Source: an uncultured archaeon
GTDB lineage: Archaea; Aenigmatarchaeota; Aenigmatarchaeia; GW2011-AR5; JAHLMP01
Direction of reading: 5' to 3'
Assembly (NCBI GenBank): GCA_964623045.1
Contig: CAZUUD010000002.1
Span: 1 to 32,704, forward strand
Length of the DNA stretch: 32,704 nt
Below the pieces are notes generated by a model, which ran no database searches, was not told the DNA's origin, and worked only from the letters and a program-made list of their open reading frames with translations. The position numbers were made by a program, and so were the translations under genes. Below are positions 12,308 through 26,585 of the stretch, piece after piece (position 1 is the first letter of the stretch; every line of letters starts with the position of its first letter).

Positions 12308-14236
12308 CTAGCTCACGCGCTTGATGACACGTCTTATCTCTTCTAGGCTTTCGGGATTGAGCAATGTAGAAGTATCTCCTAGCTCCTCGTTATGGAGAAC
12401 TCTCCTTATCAATCTACGCATTATCTTCCCACTTCTAGTATGGGGAAGTGAATTAACGAAGTATATTGCCGCCGGTTTTGCAATTTTGCTTATCTTCTTC
12501 TCCACTAGCTTTATCAATTCGCTTGACGTGGCTTTCGCGCCATGCTTCAAAACGACGAAAGCTACTGGAACTTCTCCTTTAATCTCGTGTCTCATACCAA
12601 CTACGCAACATTCAGCAACTGCTGGATGGGAAGCTATGGCGTTTTCTAGCTCTGCGGTAGATAAGCGATGACCAGCTACCTTCATTACATCGTCGCTTCT
12701 CCCTAGTATCTTTATCAAATTTCCGCTAAGTCTCACAGCCCTATCATTCGTGAGGTAAGCGTTAGGAAATCTAGACCAGTAAGTTTTCACGTATCCAGCC
12801 TCATCTCTCCATAACCCTCTTAGCATGCCAGGAGCGAAGGGTGAAAGAGCAACTAGTTCCCCATCCTCACCTGGCTTCGCGTGTTTTCCATCGGCTCTAA
12901 GCACTCCCCACCTCGTTCCAGGGAATGGTAAGCCGGCAACCGTTGGAACGAAGGGACCCACGCCAGGCAACGTGTTTATTAAGGTTCCTCCTGTTTCCGT
13001 TTGCCACCAAGTATCGATGATCGGGCATCGAGATTTGCCAACTAGCCTGAAATACCATTTCCATGTTTTCTCGTCTATTGGCTCGCCAACACTCGCTAGG
13101 ATTCGCAGAGTTTCGAGCTCGTACTTTTTCACGTGCTCTTCTCCATAGCGCATGAGCATTCTGATCAACGTTGGTGCTGTGTAAAAAATCGTAACGTTGT
13201 ACTTTTCTATTATCTGCCAAATTCGCTCACAATTAGGATAATCAGGAGCCCCTTCATAGATAACAAAACTCGCCCCATTGGCTAGAGGGCCGTAACAAGA
13301 ATAGGTGTGACCTGTTATCCATCCTATATCTGCAGTGCTAAAGAAGACATCAAAGTCATGCAAATCGAAGACTAATTTAGCGGTGGCATAGGCTTGAACT
13401 AAATAGCCACCAGTAGAATGCATGGCTATTTCTGGCTTACCTGCTGAGCCACTCTCGTGTAGGATAAAAAGCAAATCCTCGCTTTGCATCCTAGCTGGCT
13501 CACAGTACTTGCCTTTTACCTCTTTGCTTAGCTCGTTGAAAGCTATCTCATTTCTCTTGAGTTCCTCTTGGATTTTTCCTTTCCTTGGAACAACGAGAAC
13601 CTTTTTCACTTTCGTTCCCTTTATTCCCTCTCTTGCGTTTGAAAGCAAATCAATTACCTTCCCCCTTCGATAGTAGTGATCGCAAGTTATCAACAATTTA
13701 GCGTCAGCATCTAAAATTCTGGTTCGCAAGGCCTCGCTTGAAAAAGCGCTAAATACAACACAGTGAATAGCTCCGATGCGAGCACAAGCTAGCATGGCAA
13801 CTATGACTTCCGGTATCATCGGCATGTAGATCACTACCCTATCACCTCTCCGTATGCCCAGCAACTTCAGAACTTGGGCAAACTCGTTAACTTCACGGAA
13901 GAGTTCAGCGTAAGTTAACTTTCTCTCCCTTTCCTCTAGATTTTCGGGCTCCCAGTAAATAGCTACCTTGTTAGGTTGTGTAGTGAGATAGCGGTCTATG
14001 CAGTTAAAGCAAGCGTTTAACTCACCGCCTATGAACCACTTGAAGTAGGGAAGCTTCTCCTGATAGATCTTTCTCCATTTTTTGAACCAAGCTAGTTCTT
14101 CTGCAAATCTGCACCAAAAGGCGAAGGGATCTCTAGCTGCATCTTTATATATTCGCTCCGAAGCTACCCAAGCTATTTCCTTCAGCTCCTTTGACGGAAA
14201 GAATTTCTTTCCCTTCTTTACAACGTACTCTTCCAT
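12308..14236 (-). CDS. acs: Acetyl-CoA synthetase (AMP-forming)
   Basis: Full-length similarity to ACS, with motifs including HESGSAGKPE, YGPL, WWQTETGG, the adenylation-domain linker LGRSDDVMKVAGHRLSTAELE and a terminal SGKIMRR. The ORF-track start at 14281 is TTG; the ATG at 14236 (MEEYVVKKG) is preferred. Confidence 0.9.
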   Translation of the reverse strand: MEEYVVKKGKKFFPSKELKEIAWVASERIYKDAARDPFAFWCRFAEELAWFKKWRKIYQEKLPYFKWFIGGELNACFNCIDRYLTTQPNKVAIYWEPENLEERERKLTYAELFREVNEFAQVLKLLGIRRGDRVVIYMPMIPEVIVAMLACARIGAIHCVVFSAFSSEALRTRILDADAKLLITCDHYYRRGKVIDLLSNAREGIKGTKVKKVLVVPRKGKIQEELKRNEIAFNELSKEVKGKYCEPARMQSEDLLFILHESGSAGKPEIAMHSTGGYLVQAYATAKLVFDLHDFDVFFSTADIGWITGHTYSCYGPLANGASFVIYEGAPDYPNCERIWQIIEKYNVTIFYTAPTLIRMLMRYGEEHVKKYELETLRILASVGEPIDEKTWKWYFRLVGKSRCPIIDTWWQTETGGTLINTLPGVGPFVPTVAGLPFPGTRWGVLRADGKHAKPGEDGELVALSPFAPGMLRGLWRDEAGYVKTYWSRFPNAYLTNDRAVRLSGNLIKILGRSDDVMKVAGHRLSTAELENAIASHPAVAECCVVGMRHEIKGEVPVAFVVLKHGAKATSSELIKLVEKKISKIAKPAAIYFVNSLPHTRSGKIMRRLIRRVLHNEELGDTSTLLNPESLEEIRRVIKRVS

Positions 14237-14302
14237 TAAGAAAACTAGTTTGGGGTTAACTAAATAGCTTTCTCTTATCAACCGTTAAGTTAACAGAATC
14301 TC

Positions 14303-14833
14303 TCATCTCAAAGGAGGAACTTCATAATCTACGAAACAGAGGGCCACGACAGCGGTACCAAACTTCTTCCTTGGTACTATACTCCTTATCACGGGTTTGA
14401 CATTTTTGAGTTCATACCTATTTGGATCGAACCTAGATTCGAACATCTCCTTTAGACTTTGTTGTAGTATCTTTCTCGCCTCCTCTTCTTCGACTTTTCC
14501 ATGATACTCTGCGACGAGGCCTCCTAGCTTCTTTCCACTTTCCTTATCAAAGACCCATCCTAAGATGAGGCCCGCACATGCCCTCTCTCCTTGCTTCGCA
14601 TGAGAAATCGCAGCTATGCACTCTAACACACACCCAAAATCTAGGCTTACTTCGTCTCGATTGATTTCTTCAGCGTCCTTCGGAAGGATCGAAGTGTAGA
14701 ATATGAGATTACAGTTCTCTATACCAGCCTCTTTAAGTGCGTGATCTAAAGAACCTGCATGAATTTGAGTATCACTTTCTCCCACACCGCTAGTGATGAA
14801 ATACCTCCTTGGAATCCTAGGACCTACTAGCAT
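14303..14833 (-). CDS. pdaD: Pyruvoyl-dependent arginine decarboxylase
   Basis: PdaD/AaxB family. It has SGVGESD, the self-cleavage site context NLIFYTSILP (Thr-Ser) and the C-terminal GTAVVALCF. The ATG at 14833 avoids overlap with rpl2; the ORF-track start at 14887 is TTG. Confidence 0.88.
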   Translation of the reverse strand: MLVGPRIPRRYFITSGVGESDTQIHAGSLDHALKEAGIENCNLIFYTSILPKDAEEINRDEVSLDFGCVLECIAAISHAKQGERACAGLILGWVFDKESGKKLGGLVAEYHGKVEEEEARKILQQSLKEMFESRFDPNRYELKNVKPVIRSIVPRKKFGTAVVALCFVDYEVPPLR

Positions 14834-14846
14834 CTCCGTCGCCCGA

Positions 14847-15551
14847 TTACTTCTTCTTACCACTTCGTCTAGCAGAAATACTTCCAACCTTCGCTCCAGG
14901 TGGAAGTCTCCTAGATCTTGTCTTGGGTCTACCTACTCTTCTCGATTTTCCACCAAAGGGATGATCCACCGGGTTCTTTGCGCCAGCCGATACTATTGGC
15001 CAATACCTGCCTTTAGCACGCATAGCATGGTACTTAGCACCAGCTTTAAGAAAAGGTTTACTTCTGAAACCTGCACCCGCAACTACACCTATAGTTGCCC
15101 GACATTTCGAGGGAAGGGCCTTGATCACTTTCGATGGCAACATGATCAGCGTTTTACCTTTCTCATGTGCCATCACAATTGCACTCGTACCTGGGGTTCT
15201 GCAAAGCTTACCCCCATCGAACGGTCTAAGCTCTATATTACATACTTGGACTCCCTCTGGTATGGACCCTAGTTCAAGAACATTACCTATCTTTACTTCT
15301 CCTTTACCTAGCTCTACTTTATCTCCTGTTTTAAGACCGCTCACGGCAAGTAAGTACTCGCGTTTACCAGTCTCAGTTTCCACTACAGCAACTGGTGCGT
15401 ACCTAGCAGGATCGTGCACTATATCTACCACCTTTCCGGTGAGTGGTTCTGTGAATGTGTATCGTGCCTCGCAAAGAAACCTATGACTAGGTGCTAGGTA
15501 AGTCTTGCTCTTTCCAGCGCCTCTTCTTTGCTGTCTGAGCCTCTTTGGCAT
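14847..15551 (-). CDS. rpl2: 50S ribosomal protein L2 (uL2)
   Basis: 234 aa with the conserved GAKYHAMRAKGRYWPIVSAGAKNPVDHPFGGK and an RRGAGKSK N-terminus. Confidence 0.97.
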   Translation of the reverse strand: MPKRLRQQRRGAGKSKTYLAPSHRFLCEARYTFTEPLTGKVVDIVHDPARYAPVAVVETETGKREYLLAVSGLKTGDKVELGKGEVKIGNVLELGSIPEGVQVCNIELRPFDGGKLCRTPGTSAIVMAHEKGKTLIMLPSKVIKALPSKCRATIGVVAGAGFRSKPFLKAGAKYHAMRAKGRYWPIVSAGAKNPVDHPFGGKSRRVGRPKTRSRRLPPGAKVGSISARRSGKKK

Positions 15552-15748: not shown

Positions 15749-15859
15749 AAGTGCTGATTTGGGGATGATTCCCAACTTCTTTGGGATGACCCGGGGCCGG
15801 TTCTTTTCGTGGTACGAAAAGTTTGTGATCAACACATCAATCTCGGATTGGTGTTGAGG

Positions 15860-16168
15860 ATGGAGATATGTGATAAATGTGGTAATGTGATGCTCCCCGT
15901 AAGGGGTAAGAACGGCACATTTTACAAATGTCCTACTTGTGGGTCGAGAAAGTATAAGGGAAATTCTGTGACTAAATTCACTACCCCCATCAAGAGCAAA
16001 AGGTTGGATGTAATAGAGAAGGAAGAGGTCTTGCTTCCTAAAGTGGAGAAGATATGTCCTTACTGTGGATTCAAGACAGCTTGGTTCTGGATCCAGCAAA
16101 GCGACGAGGAAACTTTAGTACAGTTCTTCCGATGTATGCGTTGTAAGAAAGTATGGAGGGAAGAATAG
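15860..16168 (+). CDS. tfs: Transcription factor S (TFIIS/RpoM-type cleavage factor)
   Basis: 102 aa from the ATG at 15860 (MEICDKCGNVM). N-terminal Zn ribbon CDKCG...CPTCG and C-terminal Zn ribbon CPYCG...FWIQQSDEE...FFRCMRCKKVWRE with a DE acidic pair. The ORF-track GTG at 15809 adds 17 non-conserved residues. Confidence 0.85.
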   Translation: MEICDKCGNVMLPVRGKNGTFYKCPTCGSRKYKGNSVTKFTTPIKSKRLDVIEKEEVLLPKVEKICPYCGFKTAWFWIQQSDEETLVQFFRCMRCKKVWREE

Positions 16169-16182
16169 GGTATGAAGTTGGT

Positions 16183-16443
16183 TCAGAGTATTCCGAGTCT
16201 CATCGCCACCTCAGCAGCACTAAACTCTGATTTTAATCTAACATATGCCTTCTTGTAGCCCTTACTGGTGATGAGAGTTCTCACCTTTGCTACCTTAACC
16301 CCAAATGCCTTCTCCACAGCTCGTTTTATCTCTGGTTTGGTAGCATCCTTCCTAACCACGAATACGAGCGTATTCTCCTTCTCTATTAATCTAGTCGATT
16401 TCTCGCTGATATGAGGGTGAAGTATTATCTCCCATGGATTCAT
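16183..16443 (-). CDS. rpl23: 50S ribosomal protein L23 (uL23)
   Basis: MNPWEIILHPHISEKS...FVVRKDATKPEIKRAVEKAFGVKVAKVRT. The ATG at 16443 overlaps the TGA of the upstream Toprim ORF (ATGA), with an AGGTGGAG SD 4 nt upstream. The ORF-track start at 16452 is GTG. Confidence 0.93.
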   Translation of the reverse strand: MNPWEIILHPHISEKSTRLIEKENTLVFVVRKDATKPEIKRAVEKAFGVKVAKVRTLITSKGYKKAYVRLKSEFSAAEVAMRLGIL

Positions 16444-16829
16444 AAGCTCCACCTTAGTTCTTTCGCAAAACTCTTGAGGGCTTCTACTTCTTTTGTCTTC
16501 TTTAAAGCTAATAAGACTTCCACTGCCCTGCGTTTCGATTCTATGATCTTAGCGCCACCTAATTCTAATGTCTTCCTAAGTTTTTTGTGTAGTTTCTCGC
16601 CCTTCTCATCAAAATCCGTGAGAATTACCACGTTCTTCCCTTGAAACTCTTCGTCCTCTAATTTCCGCAATGAATTCAGCGCCCTTATCTCCGTAGCTAT
16701 ACCCAAACTACGGAGAGCCTCTATATCCTTACGCCCCTCGACTACTATTAGATCTTCCTCGTTTAGCTTAGATACAACTTCTTTTAGCATCTCTCCCATT
16801 GTAACTAAACGCTTACGTCGTGTCACCAT
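16440..16829 (-). CDS. Small stand-alone Toprim-domain protein (RNase M5-like / UPF0292-like)
   Basis: 129 aa. Toprim signature: LIVVEGRKDIEALRSLGI (catalytic Glu) and NVVILTDFDEKGEKL (DxD). The ATG at 16829 has a GGAGGA SD 6 nt upstream, lying inside the rpl4 3' end (17-nt overlap). The stop overlaps the rpl23 ATG. Confidence 0.8.
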   Translation of the reverse strand: MVTRRKRLVTMGEMLKEVVSKLNEEDLIVVEGRKDIEALRSLGIATEIRALNSLRKLEDEEFQGKNVVILTDFDEKGEKLHKKLRKTLELGGAKIIESKRRAVEVLLALKKTKEVEALKSFAKELRWSL

Positions 16830-17625
16830 ATAGTTCCTCCAGTTTTTGTAGGGCAGAAAGAGAAATAACAACTAACCTACCAGGATGGGCTCCAGGCGCT
16901 AGTTGCTCGACCGTAAGCTCATCCACTACAGCTACATCAGCTCCGGCTATGTTTCTCGCTGCTTTCATAGCAGGACAATCTTTAGAAAAGATGAAAAGAA
17001 TGCTCTTCTTCTTTTTATATCTCCTTCCCCTCATCTTCCCCTTTCCAGCCCTCACTTTCTTCTTTTTTCCTCTTTTCAGCTCAGCTTCTAGGTTCAACTT
17101 CTTGAGAAGCTCTACTATTTGCTTAGTTGACTTCACATTCTCTATCTCCTCGCTTACGACAATTGGAACTTCGCCCTCGAATTTATGTCCACGCTGCTTT
17201 ACGAACTCTAATCTAGCACATGCTGCTAAGGCAGAGCAGAGTGCCTTAAGATACTCTTTCTTGTTGATCTTCTGTTCCCATTTCTTCTCTGGTTTTGGTG
17301 GGTGAGCTCTCCTTCCTTTCCTTGCCTGCGGAACTACGCGGGCCTCCATGTAGAGTGGTGTGTATTGGGCTCCTCTGCCATGAATGCGAGGTATACGTGC
17401 CATCTCCCTGGCTATCATCGTAAATCTAGCCCTTCTCCTCCCATGATAATGAGCACTAGTTCGCATTCCAGCAAGTTTATCAGTACCGTAAGGTTGTCTT
17501 CGCCAAGATTGCTCCGCAAGTACGGCCCTCCTTATGAGGTCTTCTCTTACTGTTGTCTCGAAGAGTGGAGGGAGATCCACTTCGCTTATCCTGTTTCCAC
17601 TCATGTCATAAACTCCTACCTTCAT
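16813..17625 (-). CDS. rpl4: 50S ribosomal protein L4 (uL4)
   Basis: 270 aa, archaeal L4/L1e family (QPYGTDKLAGMRTSAHYHGRRR, the basic loop KVRAGKGKMRGRRYK). ATGA overlap with the rpl3 stop. Confidence 0.95.
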   Translation of the reverse strand: MKVGVYDMSGNRISEVDLPPLFETTVREDLIRRAVLAEQSWRRQPYGTDKLAGMRTSAHYHGRRRARFTMIAREMARIPRIHGRGAQYTPLYMEARVVPQARKGRRAHPPKPEKKWEQKINKKEYLKALCSALAACARLEFVKQRGHKFEGEVPIVVSEEIENVKSTKQIVELLKKLNLEAELKRGKKKKVRAGKGKMRGRRYKKKKSILFIFSKDCPAMKAARNIAGADVAVVDELTVEQLAPGAHPGRLVVISLSALQKLEELYGDTT

Positions 17626-18566
17626 GGAAGTATCACCTCCTTTACCTCTACAGGTTCGAAGCGTCTCTTCCTTCTAGGCGTGGAAAGTATCACCAGTCGT
17701 TTCTTCGATCCAGGAACAGAACCTTCGACCAACACAGCTTTGCTCCGTTCTTTCATGATCCCATAGTTCGTCCATCCTCCTTTAGGGTTGAGATCCTTTC
17801 CAGGAACTATGTCCACTATCCTCTTATTGTGTTCGGTTCGTTGATGAAATCCTAGCTGACCAGGCATAGGAACTTGCCACATCACCCTGCGTGGCGTAGT
17901 AGGACCTATACTTCCCGTATGTCTCCTCGTTTTCTTCTCCTTTGGTCGTTTTTCCTTAACCCCGAATCTGGCTACTACTCCCGCAAATCCTTTCCCCTTC
18001 GTTATTGCAGTTACATCACAATATTCACCTGGCTTAAACACTTCATCCACATTTATCTCCTTGCCTAATACACTCATTGCATATTGGTATTGTTCCTCCA
18101 CGCTTCCTCCTATTGGAAGCTCAAAAACCTCTGGTTTAAGCTTATGCATTCCTGCTTCCGGTGGTTGGGTAGCAACGATTAGTCTTATCTCGACTACTTC
18201 GTCTTTTCTCTGCTCAAAATCAAAACTCGGCACCTTTTCCCTTTTTCCGATTTTCCTGTCGATATGTTTTGGCAATTCCTTACTCCACGTCTCTCCCAAA
18301 GTTATGAGATTTCCCTTATCATCTTGACCGTAAAATCTAATACCGCACACATGGAGTGGAGGGCATGCTAATACGGTTATTGCCTTAACTTTGACTTTCC
18401 CTTTTTCCACGATCTGCACATGCGCCATCCCCACCTTGTAGCCAGCAAAGCCTATGGGTTTAACTTCATCAGAGTGGGGGAACTTCACTCTAGGATAGAT
18501 CCGCTTGGCTCTTTTTCGTGGGTAAAATTGCAAACTTCCTCTTCTAGGTCTTCGCACAGTTGGCAT
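17622..18566 (-). CDS. rpl3: 50S ribosomal protein L3 (uL3)
   Basis: MPTVRRPRRGSLQFYPRKRA N-terminus, plus FAGYKVGMAHV and KGKGFAGVV. The ATG at 18566 has a GGTG SD 7 nt upstream; the ORF-track start at 18575 is GTG. Confidence 0.95.
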   Translation of the reverse strand: MPTVRRPRRGSLQFYPRKRAKRIYPRVKFPHSDEVKPIGFAGYKVGMAHVQIVEKGKVKVKAITVLACPPLHVCGIRFYGQDDKGNLITLGETWSKELPKHIDRKIGKREKVPSFDFEQRKDEVVEIRLIVATQPPEAGMHKLKPEVFELPIGGSVEEQYQYAMSVLGKEINVDEVFKPGEYCDVTAITKGKGFAGVVARFGVKEKRPKEKKTRRHTGSIGPTTPRRVMWQVPMPGQLGFHQRTEHNKRIVDIVPGKDLNPKGGWTNYGIMKERSKAVLVEGSVPGSKKRLVILSTPRRKRRFEPVEVKEVILP

Positions 18567-18643
18567 TTTAAGCACCTGATTTTGATTGAGACGTAAACCT
18601 TTAATTGGGAGTTGTTTAAAAGGTTTCTCACGAGGTTATTAAA

Positions 18644-19165
18644 GTGATCCGAATGGGTCTCTATAAGTATCTTCAGCGCCTATGGAAGCGCCCTGCAGAA
18701 AACGTGGAAAGGTACAAGAACCTTTTGAGAGAGTGGAGAAGAGGTCCTGCAATAGTTAGGATAGAGAGGCCTACTCGTATAGACAGGGCCAGAAGACTAG
18801 GTTACCGAGCCAAACAAGGTTTTGTTGTGGTTAGGGTTCGTATAAGGAAAGGTGGAAGAAAGCGACCGAAATACGGAAGAGGTGGAAGAAAACCTAGTAA
18901 GGCTGGTATCTCGAAATTCACTCCCAGAAAGAGTTTACAGTTAATAGCCGAGGAAAGGGCAGCAAGGAAATTTCCAAACCTCGAAGTGCTCAACTCTTAT
19001 TGGGTCGGAGATGATGGAAATTACAAGTACTTTGAGGTTATAATGGTAGACCCGAATCATCCCGTCATCAAGAACGATCCCAAGATCAACTGGATTGTTA
19101 GGCAAAGGGGGAGAGTGTTTAGAGGTTTAACGAGTTCTGGTAAGCGTATGCGAGGTCTACGCTAG
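18644..19165 (+). CDS. rpl15e: 50S ribosomal protein L15e (eL15)
   Basis: [13 protein letters not shown]...[36 protein letters not shown]...[11 protein letters not shown]...DPNHP. The GTG at 18644 has a GAGGT SD at 7-nt spacing. The ATG at 18653 (MGLYKY) is the alternative start. Confidence 0.93.
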
Positions 19166-25202: not shown

Positions 25203-26585
25203 TTAGTCTATTACCTTTTCTCCGTGGACTCTTACCTGATGTAGCTTCAATGCACGAAGAGATTTGAAGCTCTTCTTGCAACGTCTGCAGTAGAATTTCG
25301 GTTTCTCCCTTCTTTTTCGTCTTATCCTCTGTAAGCCATATCGTTTGAAAGGATATGCAACCGGATTACGAATGAGTTTGCAAGTATCGTCTGGTTGACA
25401 AATTCCTATGCTTTTGTAAAAGAGATCACTATCGCAATTAGCAGGTAGTAAGTTTCTGGTAGCCTGGGCTTTATTCCAATTCAATTGGGAAGTGAGAAAA
25501 CTCCTCGAAAGCGGCCTTTCGTTCCTTTCGTTCCACTCGAAGAGCTTACTCTCTATCTCATCCCAATCGTAGCCCATAACTCTGAGGAAATTTATTAAAG
25601 TAAATGTACTTCGCTTCCTTCCATCACTCAACCCTTTTAGTATGTTCTTTATGCAAGGTGGGAAGAACTCCTCCGGAACCTTAAATTCCGCTGTTAGCAA
25701 TTTTCGTTTGGGTGCTCTCTTTTTTCTTGGTTTTTCTATGAACTTAGCATACCAATCCAAGGCCTCTCTTAGAAGAGCTGCTGCCTCTTCTGACTCTGCA
25801 GTAGGAATAAATTTCTCTCTAACTTTGACTCTAGTTATCCTCGCTTCAGATAACTTGAAGTCGGTCACATCGCGCAGTGGTATGGAGACTAACCAACTCT
25901 TCTCGTTAAGAGAGTAGGGCGCCCTGAATAGGTGTCTTTCGCCCCAACTTCGCTCCACTTCCACGAAGAAGAACGGATCCAAAGTCCCTTCTTCCAGTCC
26001 CTCGAAGAGCTCTTTTGCTGAATAGAGTTTAACCAACTTCCTCATCAGTTCCTCCCTTATCTCTTCACAAAGAAAAGTAATGATAGCATTCGGCACTTTA
26101 GGATATTGAAGTGCAAGTGGTTTGTAATTCACTTCAGTTGGAAATGCTTCCCAAGGAATCACGAGGTGAAATCCTCTCGAGCCCGAGAATTTCAAGCCCA
26201 CGTTTCTTATACCGAATTCCTTCAGTTTCTTCTTAAGTAATTGTACCACAAGCTTCGCTGCATCTAACCCTATCTTCGAATCTATATCGATAACCAAATC
26301 GAAGCCTATTCTAAGAGAATTGTAGTTCCTTCTCTCAGTAGAGAGTGCCATAGGATTGTTCCAGCGTTCTACTGAGCAATGGAAACTCGTTGCACCTTTT
26401 CTAACTAGCGCAATTATATCGCCTCTGAATTGAATTATGTTCGGCCTAGATAAATAACCTTCCTTCGTTGCTCCAACAAATTCGCGATTGTTGGCTATCT
26501 CAAGTAAGGCTTGAGAGATATCTTCTCTCGCATAGTATCTGAGGATTTCCATCTTCGATGGGGGGACAGGGGAGATAAGTTCCAT
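25203..26585 (-). CDS. priS: Single-chain archaeo-eukaryotic primase: PriS catalytic domain + PriL-CTD-like Fe-S domain + C-terminal C2H2 zinc finger
   Basis: AEP motifs FDLVIDIDS, SGSRGFHLVIPW and RAPYSLNEKS. These are followed by FPPCIKNILKGL...ANCDSD...GICQPDDTCKLIRNPVAYP (four Cys, PriL C-terminal domain pattern). The chain ends in YCRRCKKSFKSLRALKLHQVRVH (C-x2-C-x12-H-x4-H). Confidence 0.85.
   Translation of the reverse strand: MELISPVPPSKMEILRYYAREDISQALLEIANNREFVGATKEGYLSRPNIIQFRGDIIALVRKGATSFHCSVERWNNPMALSTERRNYNSLRIGFDLVIDIDSKIGLDAAKLVVQLLKKKLKEFGIRNVGLKFSGSRGFHLVIPWEAFPTEVNYKPLALQYPKVPNAIITFLCEEIREELMRKLVKLYSAKELFEGLEEGTLDPFFFVEVERSWGERHLFRAPYSLNEKSWLVSIPLRDVTDFKLSEARITRVKVREKFIPTAESEEAAALLREALDWYAKFIEKPRKKRAPKRKLLTAEFKVPEEFFPPCIKNILKGLSDGRKRSTFTLINFLRVMGYDWDEIESKLFEWNERNERPLSRSFLTSQLNWNKAQATRNLLPANCDSDLFYKSIGICQPDDTCKLIRNPVAYPFKRYGLQRIRRKRREKPKFYCRRCKKSFKSLRALKLHQVRVHGEKVID

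Follow-up and report, generated by a model that had tools for sequence, protein, structure and literature searches.

A small Toprim gene relocated into the rpl4/rpl23 junction in one family of Aenigmatarchaeota

Results

Gene string at the rpl4/rpl23 locus

On contig CAZUUD010000002.1 of an uncultured Aenigmatarchaeota archaeon, an open reading frame (ORF) for a stand-alone Toprim protein of 129 aa lies between rpl4 and rpl23, the genes for the ribosomal proteins uL4 and uL23. The stretch analysed, 32,704 nucleotides (nt) in length, is referred to as the window, and coordinates without a contig label are those of the window (Table 1). A first-pass annotation, made by reading the sequence, had assigned the Toprim signature to this ORF, and its translation contains both VVEGRKD and ILTDFDEKGE. 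As detailed below, the L4-Toprim-L23 arrangement arose by relocation, in this lineage only, of a known but uncharacterised archaeal gene; the universal operon has not gained a new component.

The Toprim gene is tightly packed on both sides. Its ATG (16829-16827) is located 14 nt ahead of the rpl4 stop codon, giving an overlap of 17 nt, and is preceded by a Shine-Dalgarno (SD)-like GGAGGA (read 16840-16835), whose counterpart in the relative L081 is GGGAGA. At the other end, the Toprim TGA (16442-16440) and the rpl23 ATG (16443-16441) form an ATGA with an overlap of 4 nt, and the SD-like sequence of rpl23, AGGTGGAG (read 16454-16447), is kept in L081 as GAGGTGGA. Both junctions, including the two SD-like sequences, are thus as the first-pass annotation described them. 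An independent gene call for rpl23 of the relative also gives 86 aa and the 4-nt overlap. The probable start of rpl3 is the ATG at 18566 (MPTVRR...), and the gene call of the relative begins at MPTVRR as well. From the start of rpl4 to the end of rpl23, the sense strand is free of T runs of length five or above. The GC content of the Toprim ORF matches that of its neighbours, and its GC content at third codon positions (GC3), 0.43, equals theirs. From the overlap geometry, the Toprim gene is likely to be co-transcribed with rpl3-rpl4-rpl23 and translationally coupled. The tight embedding in L3-L4-L23 makes co-expression with large-subunit proteins, which had been proposed earlier, very likely.

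Table 1. Features of the window around the rpl4/rpl23 junction.
Feature	Position	Strand	Evidence or remark
rpl15e	18644-19165	divergent from rpl3	
rpl3 (uL3), at the head of the string	17622-18575	-	Pfam Ribosomal_L3, E=1.2e-59
rpl4 (uL4), 270 aa, TAA stop at 16815-16813	16813-17625	-	Pfam Ribosomal_L4, E=3.5e-40
GGAGGA, SD-like, within the final rpl4 codons, 5 nt 5' of the Toprim ATG	16835-16840	-	sequence; L081 counterpart
Small stand-alone Toprim ORF, 129 aa, PRK04017/UPF0292/1T6T-like	16440-16829	-	Pfam PF01751, NCBIfam, profile, AlphaFold2/Foldseek, dN/dS
Codons of E31 (16739-16737, Toprim Glu) and D35 (16727-16725, Asp of EGxxD)	16725-16739	-	align with 1T6T E27 and D31
Codons of D72-F73-D74, DxD metal-binding motif	16608-16616	-	D72 and D74 invariant in 43 sequences
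Codon of E116, Glu of the C-terminal helix	16482-16484	-	aligns with 1T6T E110
AGGTGGAG, SD-like for rpl23, within the 3' end of the Toprim gene, 3 nt 5' of the rpl23 ATG	16447-16454	-	sequence
rpl23 (uL23), 86 aa from the ATG of ATGA	16183-16443	-	Pfam Ribosomal_L23, E=1.5e-20
tfs/rpoM-like zinc-ribbon gene, convergent with rpl23, probable start 15860	15809-16168	+	Pfam Zn_ribbon_TFIIS and Zn_ribbon_RPB9
rpl2 (uL2), followed by pdaD instead of rps19	14847-15551	-	Pfam Ribosomal_L2_N/C
pdaD	14303-14887	-	Pfam PvlArgDC

The Toprim ORF is a genuine gene

The ORF matches the Pfam Toprim model (PF01751) at residues 27-97 with 30.7 bits, above the gathering score of 23.1. A protein with 72% identity (P0001) is encoded on contigs of three independent samples, in which gene order, start and the 17-nt and 4-nt overlaps are identical to those of the window. 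Between the two lineages the nonsynonymous divergence (dN) of the Toprim gene is 0.18 and its ratio to the synonymous divergence (dN/dS) is about 0.14 with synonymous sites saturated, which indicates purifying selection. For rpl4 and rpl2, dN is 0.04-0.07 and dN/dS 0.03-0.05 in the same two lineages. A word-index protein search gave two close relatives only; homologues were hence sought with profiles, and a family profile and alignment of 43 homologues were obtained. The AlphaFold2 model based on this alignment has a mean predicted local distance difference test score (pLDDT) of 92.2 and a predicted template modelling score of 0.84. Because of the Pfam score, the relative with the same overlaps in three samples, the dN/dS value and the pLDDT, the ORF has not arisen by chance and the gene is real.

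The protein belongs to the PRK04017/UPF0292/1T6T-like family

All five NCBIfam models of PRK04017 ("hypothetical protein") match the protein over its full length with E values of about 1e-14, and PRK04017.1-1, -2 and -3 cover residues 4-126. The scores are 40-55 bits (best 54.9) and do not reach the equivalog cutoffs of 120-193 bits, so the protein is a divergent member and an equivalog of no curated PRK04017 subgroup. When the family profile was compared with the PDB, 1T6T, a "putative protein" of 118 aa from Aquifex aeolicus, was matched over its full length (E=6e-23, positions 9-119), followed by 2I5R and 2FCJ, which are small Toprim proteins of Bacillus type, and then by RNase M5's Toprim domain (6TG6, E=2.5e-7). 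Foldseek with the AlphaFold2 model also ranked 1T6T first (template modelling scores 0.61/0.70), and the model has the N-terminal helix, Toprim core and C-terminal helix of the small-Toprim family. The protein is basic, with an isoelectric point of 9.6 (family median 9.2).

The family is large and spread over most archaeal phyla: when sequences are clustered at 50% identity, 1,493 cluster representatives match at E<=1e-10, nearly all of 110-170 aa. The window protein is a member of a known, widespread archaeal family and does not define a new one. This agrees with the first-pass annotation, which had called it a UPF0292-like stand-alone Toprim protein and had regarded archaeal proteins of this kind as uncharacterised: our literature search on the function of UPF0292, COG1658 and archaeal small Toprim proteins found no functional paper.

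An intact two-metal acidic site

In the 43-sequence alignment, V30, E31, G32, D72, D74 and G77 are invariant, and no fewer than 90% of the sequences keep D35, K76 and E116. Schiltz et al. described D31 and E110 of 1T6T, together with the Toprim Glu and the DxD motif, as mirroring the two-metal site of OLD nucleases, equated E110 with E96 of Bacillus subtilis RNase M5, a ligand of the second metal, and named 1T6T a "putative RNase M5" (PMC6755086). Because the residues of the window protein align to the 1T6T site and to RNase M5 E96, the full acidic set (E31, D35, D72, D74 and E116) is present. The five-residue two-Mg2+ site is thus intact, and the protein is, judged by its residues, probably an active metal-dependent nuclease. 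We take E10, D14, D56 and D58 of B. subtilis RNase M5 to be the remaining residues of its two-metal site.

The protein is not a member of the RNase M5 family in the strict sense. The RNase M5 model (TIGR00334) gave 25.5 bits against a cutoff of 110.65, with only model positions 4-79 of 174 aligned. The C-terminal RNase M5 domain is missing from the 129 aa, and the matches to RNase M5 structures in the PDB are confined to the Toprim part. The likeness to RNase M5 drawn in the first-pass annotation therefore stands for the acidic site and falls for membership in the RNase M5 family. An anti-phage Toprim nuclease, such as OLD or AriB of PARIS, was also considered and rejected: PADLOC gave only a partial match of 22.8 bits to the DnaG-like segment of a DRT protein, and the genes next to the Toprim gene are those of ribosomal proteins.

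Distribution within the family and the order

The window genome, an assembly of 0.55 Mb that is 84% complete, has a single small Toprim copy. In the Aenigmatarchaeota family to which it belongs, a homologue was found in seven of nine genomes and in four of six genera, and all seven copies lie between rpl4 and rpl23. At five of six of these loci the junctions measure between -11 and +17 nt; the other locus has a gap of 113 nt before rpl23. The two remaining genera (g5 and g6) have no small Toprim gene and no visible replacement. In G005 (g5), rpl4 abuts rpl23. In G006, a 72-aa helical ORF with tight junctions (L075:1280-1498) occupies the L4-L23 gap, the only such gap without Toprim in the family. 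As a remnant of the Toprim gene this ORF was not callable (hhalign probability against the family 1.5%, no Pfam hit).

Profile searches of all 70 genomes of the order found a full-length small Toprim in nine, namely the seven of the family and two of a sister family; the other matches were frames of DnaG or topoisomerase size only. In four other families of the order rpl4 is directly followed by rpl23. Because 61 of the 70 genomes and two genera of the family are without the gene, the small Toprim protein is not generally required for the maturation of ribosomal RNA (rRNA) or for ribosome assembly; it is an accessory and not a core factor of ribosome biogenesis. Conservation of the L4/L23 position in relatives, which the first-pass annotation had named as a check of its reading, is therefore found in part: the position is kept in four genera under purifying selection and is not seen in the rest of the order.

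The usual neighbour is dnaG

We surveyed the gene neighbourhood of small Toprim genes at 57 genome loci across Archaea and 80 metagenome loci (137 in total; some contigs are in both sets). At 25 of the genome loci dnaG lies directly downstream on the same strand, and six have the L4/L23 context. Among the metagenome loci, 47 are dnaG-adjacent (46 with dnaG directly downstream, one with divergent dnaG) and seven have the L4/L23 context; most metagenome contigs in neither class are short. Thus dnaG is adjacent at 72 of 137 loci. Among the genome loci, those next to dnaG are from Hadarchaeales, Baldrarchaeota, Odinarchaeota, Thermococci, Methanobacterium, Micrarchaeota, Iainarchaeum, Nanoarchaeota and other Aenigmatarchaeota; within the last phylum but outside the family of the window, dnaG-linked Toprim genes were found at L058, L060 and L071 and also in G009 and G022. 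All 13 L4/L23 loci belong to one Aenigmatarchaeota family, the seven from metagenomes having been assigned by an L4 identity of 53-99%. No independent recurrence of the L4/L23 context was found among the 137 loci; at only three others does the L3 operon lie no more than 3-4 kb away, in no case adjacent to the gene.

The ancestral neighbour of the small Toprim gene was probably dnaG. In the window genome, dnaG (C28:2477-3622) is on a different contig from the small Toprim gene and has a divergent gene and no Toprim gene upstream. Since the slot upstream of dnaG is empty and only one copy exists, the simplest history is that the gene left the dnaG slot and entered the rpl4/rpl23 junction in a single relocation, and we consider the family identity and the relocation together to be well established. 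In the maximum-likelihood tree the copies of g2-g4 form a supported clade (96/93); deep nodes were not resolved, and the ribosomal context need not have arisen more than once. Recent acquisition from a foreign source was rejected on the same ground and because GC and GC3 match those of the neighbours.

In some lineages a further small gene accompanies this neighbourhood. The order in G009 and G022, which belong to the sister family, is Toprim - DUF167 - dnaG. The DUF167 (YggU-like) protein has 70-73 aa (L060:4332-4541 in G009; L017 in G022), and its gene is directly 5' of Toprim in one Micrarchaeota genome (L067:3763-3981). In G016, which has no small Toprim gene, DUF167 and a DnaG-type Toprim match share a contig, with DUF167 upstream by about 0.7 kb. 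DUF167 was rejected as an obligatory partner, as it was undetected in the window genome and is present in many genomes without the small Toprim gene.

A rearranged ribosomal gene string

The ribosomal gene string of the family ends at rpl2, after which pdaD or other unrelated genes come. In G005 and in the genus of the window, a tfs gene has been inserted after rpl23, convergent with it, and breaks the link between L23 and L2. Because of tfs between L23 and L2 and pdaD after L2, the constraint on gene order is visibly relaxed. The first-pass annotation had treated L3-L4-L23-L2 as a string that normally has no insert. This is correct for L4 and L23 in other families of the order, where the two are adjacent, but the string is already fragmented in the family of the window.

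Further rearrangements were seen in passing. The tfs/rpoM-like gene, which has a double zinc ribbon, lies on the opposite strand between rpl23 and rpl2 also in L081-L083 (L081:4662-5027) and in L076:488-790 (g5, without Toprim); in the other genera of the family rpl23 is directly followed by rpl2. In G002 of the same family (L014:1-992), ORFs that by eye resemble rpl29, aIF1/SUI1 and Rpp29 lie about 3 kb upstream of rpl15e/rpl3, and this set of genes suggests that an S10-like cluster was cut up and reshuffled in the family. Acetyl-CoA synthetase is encoded 3' of pdaD; the gene in L081 (L081:6557-8390, 1019 aa) has an intein (Intein_splicing and LAGLIDADG_3), and that of the window (12308-14281, 657 aa) has none.

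Discussion

The best explanation as a whole, to which we give a probability of roughly 0.6, is a relocated small Toprim gene whose product is a probable accessory nuclease, possibly directed at RNA. The ancestor of four genera in a single Aenigmatarchaeota (DPANN) family acquired the L4-Toprim-L23 layout when the gene was shifted, one time only, to the junction of rpl4 and rpl23. There it would most likely be transcribed with rpl3-rpl4-rpl23 and translated by coupling. Its product, with a five-residue two-Mg2+ acidic site as in RNase M5 and OLD nucleases, would cleave as a metal-dependent nuclease and act as an accessory factor. Its most likely substrate would be structured RNA, either rRNA precursors or RNA of the DnaG-exosome. 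The parts of this explanation differ in strength. An RNA-directed nuclease of any kind stands close to even odds, structured RNA of the two sorts named is a tentative choice with odds slightly below even, and a role specifically linked to the ribosome is doubtful.

An RNA substrate is suggested because RNase M5 is the nearest characterised relative, because the usual partner gene encodes DnaG, an exosome subunit, and because the gene is wired into the expression of large-subunit proteins. In Archaea, DnaG binds RNA as a subunit of the exosome cap and makes rRNA tailing possible (PMC4227792, PMC3672285), and the genes for the exosome ring are present in the window genome. The basic nature of the protein and its presumed expression with large-subunit proteins also favour RNA. 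The first-pass annotation had gone further and proposed an rRNA-processing or ribosome-assembly nuclease. With a single relocation, dnaG as the usual neighbour and the gene absent from most of the order, that idea is plausible only, a reasonable hypothesis and no conclusion.

RNase M5 with uL18 and Mini-III with uL3 are bacterial maturases that depend on ribosomal proteins. The small Toprim protein might be the archaeal counterpart of such maturases, a minimal endoribonuclease with a two-metal site that lacks a domain for RNA recognition and is guided to pre-rRNA by a bound protein. The guide would be uL4 or uL23 in these Aenigmatarchaeota and DnaG or the exosome elsewhere, so that the relocation would mean a change of guide. 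We put this forward as a speculation with long odds against it.

Several observations weigh against the RNA-directed accessory nuclease. The Toprim protein has a rate of evolution about three times that of the ribosomal proteins next to it. Between the window and L027 (G001, same GTDB genus) the Toprim identity is 35% and the L4 identity 70%; the former value, within one genus, is unusually fast for a gene inside a ribosomal operon. The absence of the gene from g5 and g6 counts on the same side, and its loss from 61 of the 70 genomes speaks against any essential role. The proposed coupling with rpl4 and rpl23 is read from the geometry only. SD-like 5-mers precede 16% of ORF starts against a background of 7.5%, about twofold, in an assembly without the 16S 3' end. 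The usual neighbour gene, dnaG, is also a primase homologue, and the Toprim fold is mainly that of DNA enzymes. In a Woesearchaeota-like clade the small Toprim gene is located beside a fused PriS-PriL primase, which like the two preceding points favours a role on DNA. Finally, because gene order is relaxed in this family, a Toprim gene wedged into the universal string carries less functional weight, and a lineage-restricted context in a scrambled genome may have no functional meaning.

The last point leads to neutral hitch-hiking, in which the relocation is a by-product of the heavy scrambling of gene order in the reduced DPANN genomes and the gene borrows a strong promoter for a function unrelated to ribosomes. 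The single origin in four genera only, with no recurrence at 137 loci, would be expected from such an event, as would a string that is also broken by tfs and ends at L2 with pdaD next, and so would a gene that two genera of the family, and most genomes of the order, do without. Against this, the layout and both overlaps are kept across lineages in which synonymous sites are saturated, and the three further loci near the L3 operon, which are Woesearchaeota-like or from Bathyarchaeia, exceed what chance would give. Moreover, non-ribosomal genes that persist in archaeal ribosomal operons often have to do with translation or RNA, for example Rpp29. We regard hitch-hiking as somewhat unlikely.

A function on the DNA side is less probable than that. 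Here the small Toprim protein would act alongside primases, be it DnaG, PriS-PriL or both, for instance when primers are handled or nicks are made at replication, and the ribosomal operon would only couple its expression to growth rate. The dominance of dnaG as neighbour fits this, and fused PriS-PriL is a divergent or near neighbour in L034, L050, L069, L047 and L132; primase adjacency is, however, limited to one clade. Primases, topoisomerases, RecR and OLD nucleases use Toprim as their catalytic fold (Pfam; PMC6755086), and the sole PADLOC match is to a DnaG-like Toprim segment, but among characterised small Toprim enzymes the nearest is an RNase, and archaeal DnaG has been found by experiment to be an RNA-binding exosome subunit (see above). 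In addition, every relative in which the small Toprim gene has been lost still has DnaG and PriS-PriL. The fused PriS-PriL proteins have about 460-470 aa (L034:2430-3848, L050:2228-3640, L069:799-2178 and L132), with the L3-L4 operon within 3 kb. The window has a fused PriS-PriL gene too (25203-26585), 8.4 kb from the Toprim gene.

A non-catalytic role as a metal- or RNA-binding adaptor, which would for example modulate the DnaG-exosome or ribosome assembly and cleave nothing, is suggested by the very small size with no additional substrate-recognition domain, the fast divergence and the clustering with the tiny DUF167 protein in some lineages, but it is very improbable, as five catalytic acidic residues that are invariant or nearly so in 43 distant members are not easily accounted for unless the protein is catalytic or at least binds metal.

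We know of no function for the small Toprim family, although a structure has been solved, and to our knowledge it is largely unclear how the ends of archaeal 5S and 23S rRNA are finished. A lineage in which the Toprim gene is detached from dnaG and built into rpl3-rpl4-rpl23 provides independent context evidence for RNA or the ribosome over DNA priming. This evidence consists of one event in one DPANN family, the gene is often lost, and any functional model of the small Toprim protein must explain the dominant association with dnaG.

Comparison with known systems

The closest match of the window protein is the 1T6T/PRK04017/UPF0292 group, no member of which has a demonstrated activity. The size class of 110-170 aa, the N-terminal helix, the Toprim core, the C-terminal helix with its Glu and the same five acidic residues are all shared. 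The identity is only 26-27%, and the gene of this family is usually upstream of dnaG whereas that of the window is between rpl4 and rpl23. Archaeal DnaG has the Toprim fold in common with the small protein, but DnaG, at about 400 aa, carries N- and C-terminal domains as well, and the small protein is Toprim only.

As a guest in a ribosomal operon the gene has precedents. Rpp29, an RNase P subunit whose gene lies between rpl29 and rps17, secY, adk and cmk are non-ribosomal genes in archaeal ribosomal operons. The Toprim gene of the window is likewise non-ribosomal, possibly involved in RNA processing and kept with tight spacing. Insertions of the Rpp29 type are ancient and near-universal in Archaea, whereas the Toprim insertion is found in only four genera of one DPANN family.

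RNase M5 (RnmV, TIGR00334) has the same Toprim EGxxD ... DxD ... E arrangement for two Mg2+. It has about 180 aa in total, of which a C-terminal domain of about 70-80 aa serves RNA binding, and the window protein is without this domain. RNase M5 is a bacterial 5S rRNA maturase that needs uL18, whereas the window protein is archaeal and has no known substrate. Through its operon context, a tie to a large-subunit ribosomal protein, as in RNase M5, is plausible for the window protein as well.

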